DNA of 64,000 bases from Escherichia phage ECp13. Shown in pieces: positions 40,930-49,248 of the stretch. The DNA is taken from the sequence record PP274704.1; one strand, given 5' to 3'. Within the stretch, counting starts at the first letter, position 1. Every line of letters begins with the position of its first letter. A model generated the notes under the pieces. It was not told the DNA's origin and did not search any database. It was given only the letters and a program-made list of their open reading frames with translations. Position numbers and translations under genes: made by a program.

Positions 40930-41187
40930 ATGAAAACTTTCAAAGAGTTTGCTACAAAAACCACTATCACTGAATCTTCTCACGGTATGGAAGTAAAGCT
41001 TGGAATGGCTTTAGCTGAAGCTGAGCGTCTTTTCTCTCGTATTAAAGAACTTGCTGCTGCAGTCGATCCTTCATCTTTTAAAGGAGACCAAACTAAAGTT
41101 AAAGCACTTTTAGCATTATGCTCCGATGCAGGAGAAATTGCTAAAAATGGTTCTAAGATGAAGAAACGATTAGAAGATTTAAAATAA
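40930..41187 (+). CDS. internal-protein-like small protein with capsid-targeting-like N-terminus
   Basis: 85-aa ORF at the T4 ipI position; MKTFKEFATKTTITE resembles the T4 IP targeting sequence (MKTYQEFIAE) with an I-x-E gp21-type cleavage motif. Confidence 0.6.
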   Translation: MKTFKEFATKTTITESSHGMEVKLGMALAEAERLFSRIKELAAAVDPSSFKGDQTKVKALLALCSDAGEIAKNGSKMKKRLEDLK

Positions 41188-42636: not shown

Positions 42637-42720
42637 GAATTATTTGTTATTATTAACTCATATCGCACTGATTAATACCCTCTATCATCAAGGGTTCTTG
42701 TTTGAGAGCCTTTGTTAATA

Positions 42721-42781
42721 ATTTTGGTAGAGCGCCTGATTTGGGATCAGGAGGTCCAAGGTTCAAATCCTTGTATGGAGA
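42721..42781 (+). pseudogene. tRNA-Pro(UGG) 3' fragment (5' acceptor and D-arm missing)
   Basis: Intact anticodon arm (CCTGA-tttggga-TCAGG, anticodon TGG), variable loop, T-arm (CAAGG-ttcaaat-CCTTG) and 3' acceptor TATGGAG; no complementary 5' acceptor or D-stem upstream. Confidence 0.5.
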
Positions 42782-42783
42782 CT

Positions 42784-42883
42784 GGAGGCGTGGCAGAGTG
42801 GTTTAATGCACCGGTCTTGAAAACCGGCAGTCGCTCCGGCGACTCATACTAGGTCGTAGGTTCGATCCCTACTGCCTCGACCA
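42784..42883 (+). tRNA. tRNA-Ser(UGA), type II with long variable arm, CCA encoded
   Basis: Acceptor GGAGGCG, D-arm GCA-gagtggtttaa-TGC, anticodon arm CCGGT-cttgaaa-ACCGG (anticodon TGA), variable stem GTCGC/GCGAC, T-arm GTAGG-ttcgatc-CCTAC, 3' TGCCTCG-A-CCA; immediately follows the Pro fragment as in the T4 Pro-Ser pair. Confidence 0.6.
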
Positions 42884-43051
42884 AACAAGAAACCGGGTCG
42901 CTACCGGTAAGTCGTCGGACTGATGTTCCCTGGAGTATAGTTCCTCCCACAGTTTTACTGTGTTCTGGTTCTTTACTATCACAGCTGAAACGGCGCACCG
43001 AATTATCGATTCGAGGAAATATCTTTGCCGTAAGCCGAGTAGCGTTTTTGA

Positions 43052-43143
43052 CGGAACGTTCGGATATGGTCGAGATATGGCCTTTTAAAAATATTGAGTA
43101 GCGTCAACTGCTTAATAACCGGGTTCGAATCCCGGCGTTTCGT
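43052..43143 (+). ncRNA. tRNA-like element (acceptor stem plus canonical T-arm), possible stable small RNA or degenerate tRNA
   Basis: CGGAACG (43052-58) pairs with CGTTTCG (43136-42); T-arm CCGGG-ttcgaat-CCCGG; no canonical anticodon arm; lies in a 630-bp ORF-free stretch. Confidence 0.3.
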
Positions 43144-43195
43144 ACAAACACTTGCCTTAGCAGGTGGAACCCCGACAAGGTTGCCGCAAGGCTTA

Positions 43196-43222
43196 GCCCC
43201 GACCGAAAGGTTGGGGCTTTTT
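43196..43222 (+). terminator. intrinsic terminator closing the tRNA/small-RNA region
   Basis: CCCCGACC-gaaa-GGTTGGGG hairpin followed by CTTTTT. Confidence 0.65.
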
Positions 43223-43224
43223 AG

Positions 43225-43232
43225 TATAAATA
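43225..43232 (+). promoter_or_regulatory. late promoter (TATAAATA) for the IP-like gene at 43273
   Basis: TATAAATA on plus strand, 41 nt upstream of the ATG. Confidence 0.55.
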
Positions 43233-43272
43233 TAGTAGTATATTAAATCCACGAATTAAAACAGGAAATAAG

Positions 43273-43746
43273 ATGAAATCATATGCTCAATTTTTAAATG
43301 AAGCGGTGTTAAATGAAGCATCTAGCACCGAAATTCAAGCCGTCGCAAAAGCAGCCATTGCAGCGGGTAAATATTCCTATAAAGATGCTTCTGACGAATC
43401 ACGATTCCAATTTGCTCGCGACATGAAAGCAGAAGGATTTACGGGAAATGCGGTTAGTATGGCCTGGAAAAGTCTAGTTGCTACTGGCGCTGCTTTTGCA
43501 AAGGCTTCGGGTAAACCTGCTCCTAAAGCAGATCCTAAAGCTGCACAAGAAAAAAATATCGTTAAAGGAATTATCGCTAAATATGAAGCTATCCTTAAAG
43601 AGCTTTTAGTAATCAAAACCGAAGGCCAAAAGTTAGCCCGTGCTTATAGTTTCAAAGATAATCCACATGTTCACTCTCTTGAGTATGTTGAAGACATTCA
43701 AAAAATTATTAAAGACCGCATTTGGTCTGCTAAACAAATCAAATAA
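43273..43746 (+). CDS. internal-protein-like protein with capsid-targeting-like N-terminus
   Basis: 157-aa ORF; MKSYAQFLNE-A resembles the 10-residue T4 IP targeting sequence ending in an L-x-E cleavage motif; late promoter upstream. Confidence 0.6.
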   Translation: MKSYAQFLNEAVLNEASSTEIQAVAKAAIAAGKYSYKDASDESRFQFARDMKAEGFTGNAVSMAWKSLVATGAAFAKASGKPAPKADPKAAQEKNIVKGIIAKYEAILKELLVIKTEGQKLARAYSFKDNPHVHSLEYVEDIQKIIKDRIWSAKQIK

Positions 43747-43755
43747 CATTCTTAA

Positions 43756-43782
43756 CCCCGACCAAAAGGTTGGGGCTTTTTG
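43756..43782 (+). terminator. intrinsic terminator (second copy of the 43196 hairpin)
   Basis: CCCCGACC-aaaa-GGTTGGGG followed by CTTTTT, 10 nt after the IP-like stop. Confidence 0.65.
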
Positions 43783-43914
43783 GTATCTAGGCCTTTCTGG
43801 ACCTCTCTAGGCATCATTTAGTTTATACCCTTTATAATATATTATCCTATCTTTTAATTGCCCCTCCCTGCCCTAGAATTCCCTAAAAATTTTTAAAAAT
43901 TTTTTCACAAAACT

Positions 43915-43944
43915 ATTTACATCCCTGTTCTTCCATGGTACTAT
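43915..43944 (+). promoter_or_regulatory. early sigma70-type promoter (conserved module TGGTACTATACAACTATCAACT)
   Basis: TTTACA at 43916-43921, 17 bp, TACTAT (43939-43944). Confidence 0.6.
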
Positions 43945-43988: not shown

Positions 43989-44252
43989 ATGGATAATTAC
44001 GGCGAACTGTTCAACTTCTTTATGAAATGCGTTTCAGAAGATTTCGGTCGTACAGTGAATGATATTAAAGTTATCGGTCCTGACCATCCGATGTTTGAAA
44101 CTTACGCAGTAATGGGTAATGAAGACGGACAGTGGTATACTGTAAAGGTTGTGATTAACATGTTCACAGCAGAAGGTTATGTTAAACTGTCTTCTAAAGT
44201 TTACCACGATAACGACGAAATCGCAGAAGAATATTTCAATAATATGAAATAA
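43989..44252 (+). CDS. hypothetical protein
   Basis: 87 aa from ATG 43989 (GGAGA RBS 9 nt upstream); track ORF starts further upstream at 43935. Confidence 0.5.
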   Translation: MDNYGELFNFFMKCVSEDFGRTVNDIKVIGPDHPMFETYAVMGNEDGQWYTVKVVINMFTAEGYVKLSSKVYHDNDEIAEEYFNNMK

Positions 44253-48348: not shown

Positions 48349-48765
48349 ATGACTCGTATTAATTTGACTTTAGTATCTGAACTTGCTGATCAACATTTAA
48401 TCGCAGAATACCGTGAACTGCCGCGTGTTTTTGGTATAGTTCGTAAACATGTTGCAAATGGTAAGCGGGTTAAAGATTTTAAAATATCTTCCGAGTTTAT
48501 TTTAGGTTCTGGTCATGTCACGTTCTTTTACGATAAGTTAGAATTTTTGCGAAAGCGTCAATCAGACATTATAACGGAATGCTTAAAACGTGGGTTCAGT
48601 ATAAAAGATACTGAAGTTCCTGACATCAGCGATATTCCAGCAGAATGGAAAAATGATTATAATCCATGCAAATCAGCTATTAAATTGAGCCAACAACGAC
48701 TCGATGAAAAAATTTTAATGAAGCCATACTGGTATAAATACTACGGTAAAACTATTTACATTTAA
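48349..48765 (+). CDS. denV: endonuclease V (pyrimidine dimer DNA glycosylase)
   Basis: 138-aa [31 protein letters not shown]...; length and sequence recognised as T4 endonuclease V. Confidence 0.92.
48733..48740 (+). promoter_or_regulatory. late promoter (TATAAATA) inside 3' end of denV, serving the downstream IP gene
   Basis: TATAAATA 35 nt upstream of the IP ATG at 48775. Confidence 0.55.
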
Positions 48766-48774
48766 AGGAAACAC

Positions 48775-49248
48775 ATGAAAACATATCAAGAATTTATCAC
48801 TGAAGCAGCTATTAATTCTCAAATTATCGCTGAATCTTTTATTGATCTTTTGAAATTTAAAAAAGGTCAAAAAATCACTGCTGTATTGGATGATGGTACA
48901 GAAGTTGAGATGGATGTACAGGGATATAATTATGCAGTAGATGGAAAACTGTATAATAAATCTCATGCTAAATTTGATTCATTTGACGATTTTGTTAATA
49001 CAGTTGAAGATGAAAAAACTCGTAGATCCATTGCAACTGGCGACGCTAAGGTTCTTATGGCACATGGTCATGAACGTATCCGCGCGAAGCAGAATAAAAT
49101 GGGTGAAGATAATTTTGCATTAGTTGGTTATCAATCTGGTAAACAAACTTATGGTTATCAGCGTACTGCTACCATGTATAACAAAAATGGTAAAATCGCT
49201 TTCGTGAATAGCAAAGGTTCTATTCAGTACGTCAAATCATTCAAATAA
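48775..49248 (+). CDS. internal protein (IPII/IPIII-type) with canonical capsid targeting sequence
   Basis: 157-aa ORF starting MKTYQEFITE-A, matching the T4 IP targeting sequence and gp21 cleavage site. Confidence 0.75.
   Translation: MKTYQEFITEAAINSQIIAESFIDLLKFKKGQKITAVLDDGTEVEMDVQGYNYAVDGKLYNKSHAKFDSFDDFVNTVEDEKTRRSIATGDAKVLMAHGHERIRAKQNKMGEDNFALVGYQSGKQTYGYQRTATMYNKNGKIAFVNSKGSIQYVKSFK

Follow-up and report, generated by a model that had tools for sequence, protein, structure and literature searches.

The 64,000-nucleotide stretch of Escherichia phage ECp13 described here (sequence record PP274704.1; hereafter the window) is a segment of a Tequatrovirus (T4-like) genome, its + strand corresponding to the T4 minus strand, and contains between the homologues of T4 rnaC and e.8 a 157-residue open reading frame (ORF; 43273-43746, + strand) that we refer to as gene A. 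Its features indicate that gene A probably codes for an internal protein (Ip) that is directed to the phage head by an N-terminal capsid targeting sequence (CTS), is proteolytically processed, and is expressed from a late cassette bounded by transcription terminators. We hold it equally probable, as part of this same interpretation, that gene A specifies an internal head protein that current annotation has overlooked, and that it constitutes a self-contained late unit at the terminator that follows rnaC.

The gene A product starts MKSYAQFLNE|A, T4 IPII and IPIII both start MKTYQEFIAE|A, and T4 IPI starts MKTFKEFTSTTTPVSTITE|A; gene A thus retains Y4, F7, L8, and E10 of the T4 CTS, bearing out the CTS-like leader with an L-x-E motif proposed in an earlier note on this DNA. 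Suppressor analysis of IPIII assigns residues 4 and 7 to targeting and residues 8 and 10 to processing (PMC9026906). The first ten residues of IPIII are enough for encapsidation, with gp21 cutting after L/I-x-E (PMC9026906, a review of work from the Black laboratory), and the ten-residue T4 CTS suffices to package foreign proteins such as green fluorescent protein (GFP; PMC9026906, PMC3012670). Among the ATG-initiated peptides in all six frames of the window, only three fit the pattern MK[STA][YF]xxF, these being gene A and the two internal proteins Ip5 and Ip4. The gene A start codon is preceded at a distance of 4 nt by a Shine-Dalgarno-like AGGAAA (43263-43268, + strand), and the same AGGAAA lies before gene A in other phages.

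The leader as we define it from comparison with IPII and IPIII and from the family alignment (43273-43317, + strand) comprises the CTS (residues 1-10) and a second LNE|A site at residues 13-15. An 11-nt sequence, TTAAATGAAGC, is present twice within it, at 43294-43304 and 43309-43319, 15 nt apart, which doubles the LNE|A motif to give two gp21-type sites as judged by motif, L8-N-E10|A and L13-N-E15|A, and cleavage may therefore fall after E10, after E15, or after both. The glutamate that is universally conserved in the family alignment corresponds to E15 (LNE|AS) of the window protein, and the window allele together with two other aligned sequences (P0002 and P0003) contains a five-residue insertion that creates the extra LNE|A at E10; the alleles of RB27, the Mosigvirus phages and the Klebsiella phages have a single LNE|A-type site. 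The N-terminal peptide predicted for the uncut protein is SYAQFLNEAVLNEASSTEIQAVAK, and those beginning at the candidate cut sites are AVLNEASSTEIQAVAK (from A11) and ASSTEIQAVAK (from A16). The computed mature product has a mass of 15.5-16 kDa and an isoelectric point (pI) of 9.5, the latter within the range of 9.0-9.65 calculated for mature IPI, IPII, IPIII, Ip4, and Ip5.

Gene A is widespread among T4-like phages. It was found by tblastn in 511 phage records, in all of which it is annotated as a hypothetical protein, and its cluster includes members in AR1, PP01 and Bas42 (all labelled hypothetical) as well as ime09, whose F413_gp249 is identical to the window protein. It matches the phrog_2280 profile over residues 1-157 (E = 1.7e-60), a group that PHROGs labels 'unknown function', and a literature search recovered no paper mentioning phrog_2280, RB32ORF133c, RB14ncORF136c, or RB69ORF149c. 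Members of the family are present in five genera of the Tevenvirinae: Tequatrovirus, Mosigvirus, Dhakavirus, Tegunavirus, and Jiaodavirus. The family is tiny and confined to T4-like phages, since an exhaustive profile search of 1.84 billion representative proteins gave 13 matches, all of the same architecture and none from a cellular organism; a word-indexed search gave 14, and a scan of IMG/VR contributed just 6 further loci.

The common architecture consists of the leader, a three-helix N-domain (approximately residues 16-75, containing GKYSY and AWKS motifs), a Pro/Lys/Ala-rich linker, and a helical C-domain. The N-domain is conserved across the five genera, and there are at least two alternative helical C-domains. 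Homologues that are only 26-30% identical in the mature part still start M-x-x-F/Y-x-x-F-L-x-E, with M1 and F7 invariant in these remote homologues and F/Y4, L8, and E10 nearly so. Because the leader is retained in such remote homologues it appears to be selected as a peptide rather than as DNA homology, and this is the strongest internal argument for its function.

The mature part is unlike the T4 internal proteins, as the earlier note had stated: BLASTP against IPI, IPII, IPIII, Ip4, and Ip5 returned no hit with an E-value under 0.5, the PHROG of gene A is distinct from those of the Ips, and there is no sequence or fold tie to Ip1, Ip2, or Ip3. Ip1-3 are themselves mutually unrelated (PMC12373910), and the dissimilarity of gene A to them is therefore uninformative about function. 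The structure and profile searches that the note had suggested yielded an all-helical AlphaFold2 model with a coiled-coil hairpin (mean predicted local distance difference test score 73) in which residues 1-15 are disordered, but no informative match; Foldseek with this model gave a best PDB hit of E = 1.4 and, in BFVD, only the protein itself, and NCBIfam, PADLOC, and a PDB sequence-profile search gave no match, with Pfam returning sub-threshold noise only.

Gene A is flanked by two terminator hairpins, both recovered by a terminator scan. The upstream hairpin (43195-43222, + strand; stem 43195-43218, then a T-run) folds with -20.3 kcal/mol and aligns with its T4 counterpart, and the downstream hairpin (43756-43781, + strand), in which the loop G is changed to A, folds with -15.1 kcal/mol. 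The sequence CCCCGACC-R-AAAGGTTGGGGCTTTTT (search pattern CCCCGACCRAAAGGTTGGGGCTTTTT) matches the 64 kb at two positions, 43197-43222 and 43756-43781, and no further copy is seen there with up to 3 mismatches, the chance expectation being none. The earlier description of a cassette bracketed by two near-identical hairpins is thus sound, although its coordinates were one base out of register (taking in an extra g at 43196 and at 43782) and the true repeat extends beyond the hairpins to 36 nt. The two copies of this direct repeat, CTTA[G/A]CCCCGACC[G/A]AAAGGTTGGGGCTTTTT[A/G]GTAT, differ by 3 mismatches and have a period of 559 bp; copy 1 is CTTAGCCCCGACCGAAAGGTTGGGGCTTTTTAGTAT (43192-43227, + strand), and copy 2 is CTTAACCCCGACCAAAAGGTTGGGGCTTTTTGGTAT (43751-43786, + strand), followed by GGTATCTAGGCC.

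A T4-type late promoter motif, TATAAATA (43225-43232, + strand), lies just 3' of the upstream hairpin, 48 nt upstream of the gene A ATG. The same motif or a one-mismatch variant lies directly 3' of the hairpin in all 15 of the gene A loci for which the upstream region is shown, representing Tequatrovirus, Mosigvirus, Dhakavirus and Tegunavirus, and this conserved position agrees with the proposal that the gene has a late promoter of its own. No sigma-70-like site is present on the + strand between 43196 and 43272, the late-promoter motif being present instead.

Comparison with T4 shows how the unit is placed. In T4 the annotated rnaC ends approximately 50 nt before a single hairpin, which runs straight into GGTATCTAAGCC and on to e.8, the interval holding no gene, and the window therefore carries an extra 559-bp unit composed of a late promoter, a gene, and a second hairpin. 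The empty site in T4 is exactly one repeat copy. Of the two hairpins in the window, the upstream one is the resident post-rnaC terminator and the downstream one its duplicate; the idea that both hairpins are specific to the cassette is thus abandoned, as the upstream one occurs in single copy in T4.

Four states of the locus are represented in public genomes. It is empty in T4, T2, PST, and ACG-C40; it contains gene A only in the window, ESh16, fD1, RB27, and a48; a second gene, which we call gene B, is present alone in RB14 and, in a split version, in RB69; and both genes are present in Sfk20, KarlGJung, OE5505, and ESh32, the last with gene B frameshifted. The presence or absence of a gene at the hairpin predicted from the window is thus what an alignment of the locus across T-even phages reveals, with T4 and T2 gene-less and others carrying one or two CTS genes, and gene A is evidently dispensable and polymorphic among close relatives. 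Each module begins right behind GGGGCTTTTT, and at its end stands a hairpin with GGGCTTTTT after it; the last module is always followed by GGTATCTAGGCC, as is the single hairpin of T4.

These junctions bear on the alternative that the hairpins are simply two representatives of a widely used type of terminator rather than markers of a mobile unit, with gene A an ancestral resident that T4 has lost. The sequences fit either direction, insertion or deletion, and in Dhakavirus-like genomes the downstream hairpin is unrelated (GCCCCGTCTGGGG). Nevertheless, we regard this as most improbable, given the restriction of the pattern to two places in the window even with 3 mismatches allowed, the 36-nt length of the repeat, which reaches past the hairpin in both directions, the exact correspondence of the T4 empty site to one copy, and the existence of all four A/B combinations with junctions at the hairpin and T-run; moreover, loss by recombination between the repeats would in itself be cassette behavior.

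In some genomes the same lineage-specific variant appears in both hairpin copies, with AGCC/AGCC in RB27 and TTCC/TTCC in the Mosigvirus RPN187, and in two other loci (L014 and L015) the variants are mixed. We read these patterns as repeated recombination in or beside the hairpins; a stronger claim of concerted evolution of the two copies was considered and dropped, because the variants are shared in RB27 and RPN187 and mixed in L014 and L015. Several individual loci have further rearrangements. In phage a48 (L018) the downstream hairpin reads CCCCAACCTTTCGGCTGGGG, which reverse-complements exactly to the upstream variant CCCCAGCCGAAAGGTTGGGG found in RB27 and L015, such that the palindromic terminator is inverted in place. 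In phage mogra (L017) the trailer 3' of rnaC is shortened, with an internal CCCCGACAAGGTTG joined directly to GGGGCTTTTT, and this fusion looks like a deletion between two similar motifs. Yersinia phage fHe-Yen9-01 (L020, 622-1737) has two tandem CTS-like ORFs, 9 nt apart, behind one hairpin and TATAAATA; the first codes for 189 residues starting MLQYNEFLKE, and the second for 178 residues that combine the N-domain of gene A with an alternative C-domain.

Gene B is a second unannotated CTS-bearing ORF, of 187 codons, whose product starts MKTYAEFLTE|A and has a mature pI of 9.5. It is absent from the window and is present in 165 phage records, examples being those of Sfk20 (L001, 4803-5366) and RB14 (ncORF136c; L004, 510-1073). 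Its terminator hairpin is a separate, different one, and its late-promoter motif has one mismatch, being either AATAAATA or GATAAATA. Gene B also matches phrog_2280 (E = 2e-53), and this common PHROG suggested that A and B are paralogues; pairwise comparison led us to reject this, as only the first 11 residues align. In ESh32 (L006, 2270-2831; a record marked UNVERIFIED) one base is lost in codon 3 of gene B, and in RB69 (ORF149c/148c; L005, 514-1076) gene B is broken up, appearing as two ORFs that overlap. These disruptions may reflect either pseudogenization or sequencing error.

Information on virions comes from Yersinia phage fD1 (HE956711), which has the same locus and whose g140 is 97% identical to the gene A protein. 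Gp g140 was detected using liquid chromatography-tandem mass spectrometry as particle-associated in virion preparations (PMC8309999, Table S3), and packaging of the gene A product is probable, with good but indirect support from the conservation of the leader and from the presence of this orthologue in the preparations.

Five points weigh against our interpretation. First, packaging, N-terminal processing, and injection are all inferred rather than observed directly. Second, the gene A leader is identical to the T4 CTS at 5 of 10 positions, a level reached by 6 of the 2526 ATG-initiated peptides in the window. Third, the fD1 particle-associated list comprises 113-137 of 277 gene products and includes dNMP kinase and topoisomerase (PMC8309999); the data therefore show that g140 is made and give weak support for encapsidation. 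A literature search on AR1 or fHe-Yen9-01 for virion proteomics of higher purity yielded nothing usable. Fourth, TATAAATA is not rare in this AT-rich genome, with 23 copies in the window and 9.6 expected from shuffled sequences, such that the motif by itself is weak evidence for a promoter. Fifth, ten further Ip genes, ip4-10 among them, gave no reproducible inhibition of additional variants of GmrSD, the restriction enzymes blocked by Ip1-3 (PMC12373910), and not every Ip need therefore target GmrSD.

One alternative is that the gene A product is not packaged at all. It could be an ordinary cytoplasmic late protein whose conserved 5' end (promoter, ribosome binding site, and first ten codons) serves only as homology for shuffling, as Repoila et al. 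proposed that shuffling proceeds through homologies in and around Ip ORFs (as cited in PMC4122927). Genes A and B have only their first 11 residues in common, which would fit such an explanation, as would the fact that the fD1 preparation was not clean. However, the leader is conserved as amino acids, at functionally mapped positions, and in genera too diverged to recombine, and the fD1 orthologue is present in the virion preparations. Furthermore, since a ten-residue CTS alone packages GFP, a late protein bearing a CTS should be packaged whatever its origin. We therefore consider a non-packaged product to be very unlikely, and prefer the interpretation of gene A as an internal protein.

A plausible course of events for such a protein would begin with termination of upstream transcription at the hairpin that follows rnaC, which we observe as a hairpin and presume to be a functional terminator. 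Three bases past its T-run, TATAAATA would drive late transcription of gene A alone, the motif being present and the timing predicted from its type, and the duplicated hairpin would halt the transcript before the e.8 early promoter, both of these motifs being seen in the window. By analogy with the IPIII CTS, MKSYAQFLNE would dock the protein into the prohead scaffolding core, following which gp21 would cleave off the leader at LNE|A, behind E10, E15, or both, leaving a basic (pI 9.5), helical protein of approximately 15.5-16 kDa inside the DNA-filled head. Ejection with the DNA would then allow it to act before any phage gene is expressed. The 36-nt repeats, together with the shorter GGGCTTTTT shared with module B, would provide the sites for the gain, loss, and exchange of modules, presumably by recombination between co-infecting relatives.

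What the protein might do in the newly infected cell is suggested by its relatives in kind. Each of Ip1, Ip2, and Ip3 blocks a GmrSD type IV restriction enzyme of its own (Silas et al. 2025, PMC12373910), and by analogy alone the likeliest function of the gene A product would be that of a stoichiometric inhibitor of a nuclease-type host defence, for which we judge the odds to be about even. An anti-defence role of any sort, which was also the suggestion of the earlier note, may be held at that same even level of confidence.

The leading alternative accepts packaging through the leader and assigns the protein a structural or physical role, in core assembly, in DNA condensation as a counter-ion, or in ejection, with its polymorphism reflecting redundancy among Ips. 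The product has a basic, lysine-rich composition, a linker of Pro, Lys, and Ala, and a hairpin of the coiled-coil type; IPIII has been proposed to act in morphogenesis alongside gp22 (PMC9026906); PADLOC reveals no defence-related homology; and retention of the N-domain across five genera would be unusual for a fast-evolving inhibitor. Countering these, gene A is dispensable, with the site empty in T4, T2, and PST, an anti-restriction target is now defined for all three T4 Ips (PMC12373910), and the C-domain swaps between relatives suit a protein engaged in an arms race better than a housekeeping one. A purely structural role thus seems unlikely, if by no means negligibly so, and we continue to view gene A as a candidate for an injected anti-defence protein.

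A broader proposal, which we offer only tentatively and think somewhat doubtful, is that the rnaC-e.8 interval is a third Ip locus of the Tevenvirinae, with at least two unrecognized injected families (A and B), in which A is a modular effector, having a conserved N-domain and interchangeable C-domains, directed against some host defence distinct from the GmrSD variants that Ip1-3 inhibit. Were this so, these proteins would represent a new class of pre-expression anti-defence proteins. Silas et al. speak of "the two Ip loci" (PMC12373910), and the literature still counts two such loci and approximately ten Ip genes. No phage counter-defence proteins other than Ips are already in place on entry of the DNA, and the gene A family is found in about 500 sequenced T4-like phages, many of which are candidates for therapy. 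Recognition of A and B as CTS proteins provides two ready candidates for defence-inhibitor screens and better annotation, and the locus is a clean natural example of a cassette moving by recombination at a terminator, a concept that it leaves unchanged.

At the DNA level the window is matched best by ESh16, KNP1, and Sfk20, phages of Shigella and Escherichia, with 98-99.9% identity. The regional gene order is dNMP kinase, 57A, 57B, Ip5, homologues of tRNA.4 to tRNA.2, a remnant tRNA cluster, rnaD, and rnaC, followed by gene A, e.8, e.7, and on to e (lysozyme), denV, and Ip4. The homologue of rnaC (species 1 RNA; 43006-43144, + strand), with which the tRNA/rnaD/rnaC cluster ends, is near-identical to T4 rnaC (NC_000866, 70908-71046). 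The conserved right-hand neighbor of the locus, e.8 (43989-44252, + strand; identified by alignment with T4 e.8), is present in 596 phage records, and its unit is preceded by a sigma-70-type early-promoter-like site (43916-43944, + strand; TTTACA-17-TACTAT with an upstream TG).

Set against Sfk20 and its 10 tRNAs, the tRNA cluster (42700-42890) proves to be a mosaic of deletions. The start of a tRNA-Gln is fused to the interior of a tRNA-Pro with a junction near 42723, and most of a tRNA-Ser is fused to the 3' end of a tRNA-Arg with a junction near 42848; the Rfam 'tRNA' matches at 42710-42781 and 42784-42880 are therefore chimeras, and ARAGORN found zero tRNAs over the whole window. The nearest public relatives retain their tRNAs.

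The two classical Ip loci are taken up in the window by Ip5 and Ip4. Ip5 (40930-41187; 85 residues) is 100% identical to RB14 Ip5 and lies in the 57B-tRNA.4 locus, and Ip4 (48775-49248; 157 residues) is 99% identical to RB14 Ip4 and lies after denV. Together with gene A these make three CTS proteins in ECp13, none of which is T4 IPI, IPII, or IPIII. The ORF at 48349-48765 between e and Ip4 we take to be denV (endonuclease V), and its position there indicates that the classical Ip locus is also rearranged in the window, with the order e, denV, Ip4, the T4 order being e, ipIII, ipII, denV.

Gene A has much in common with T4 IPI-III and the T-even Ip4-Ip10 and later proteins, which likewise have an N-terminal CTS, an L/I-x-E gp21 site, a late-promoter motif, and a small basic product, and are similarly dispensable and variable among close relatives, with unrelated mature parts and with flanks that permit shuffling. 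It differs from them in location, as T-even Ips occupy the 57B-tRNA.4 and e-denV loci and gene A lies between rnaC and e.8; in annotation, as Ip4 and Ip5 are named in the same genomes whereas gene A is 'hypothetical' in every record examined; and in its two-domain architecture of a conserved N-domain with alternative C-domains. The abstract of the Repoila et al. study is reported to state that the flanking homology contains a late promoter. That study, as cited by later authors, describes polymorphic CTS-bearing T-even Ips shuffled through flanking homologies (Repoila et al. 1994, cited in PMC12373910, PMC3012670, and PMC4122927). The kind of system described here is thus already known, and what appears to be new is the recognition of A and B as Ips, the third locus that is empty in T4, and the use of the post-rnaC terminator as its left boundary. 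There is a small chance that A or B already bears a Repoila number (Ip4-Ip13), as we set them apart by annotation and not by sequence; this seems unlikely because the groups that named Ip4, Ip5, and Ip6 annotated both genes as hypothetical.

The gene A unit also resembles the morons of lambdoid phages in being an autonomous transcription unit placed between two resident units. Movement by way of conserved repeats at the flanks is not attributed to morons (PMC2839356), whereas the flanks of gene A are a likely substrate for recombination. In this respect a closer parallel is with the PeSL cassettes, which combine an early sigma-70 promoter with a stem-loop (Arbiol et al. 2010, PMC2839356; Comeau et al. 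2014, PMC4122927). The gene A repeat unit differs from these in consisting of a terminator followed by the late promoter TATAAATA, with no sigma-70 early promoter, and its upstream hairpin also terminates the tRNA cluster. In both systems, however, a single non-essential ORF lies between repeated motifs and relatives with an empty site have a lone motif, and recombination in or beside the stem-loop, which explains gain and loss of the PeSL cassettes, is the closest described mechanism for the movement of gene A.

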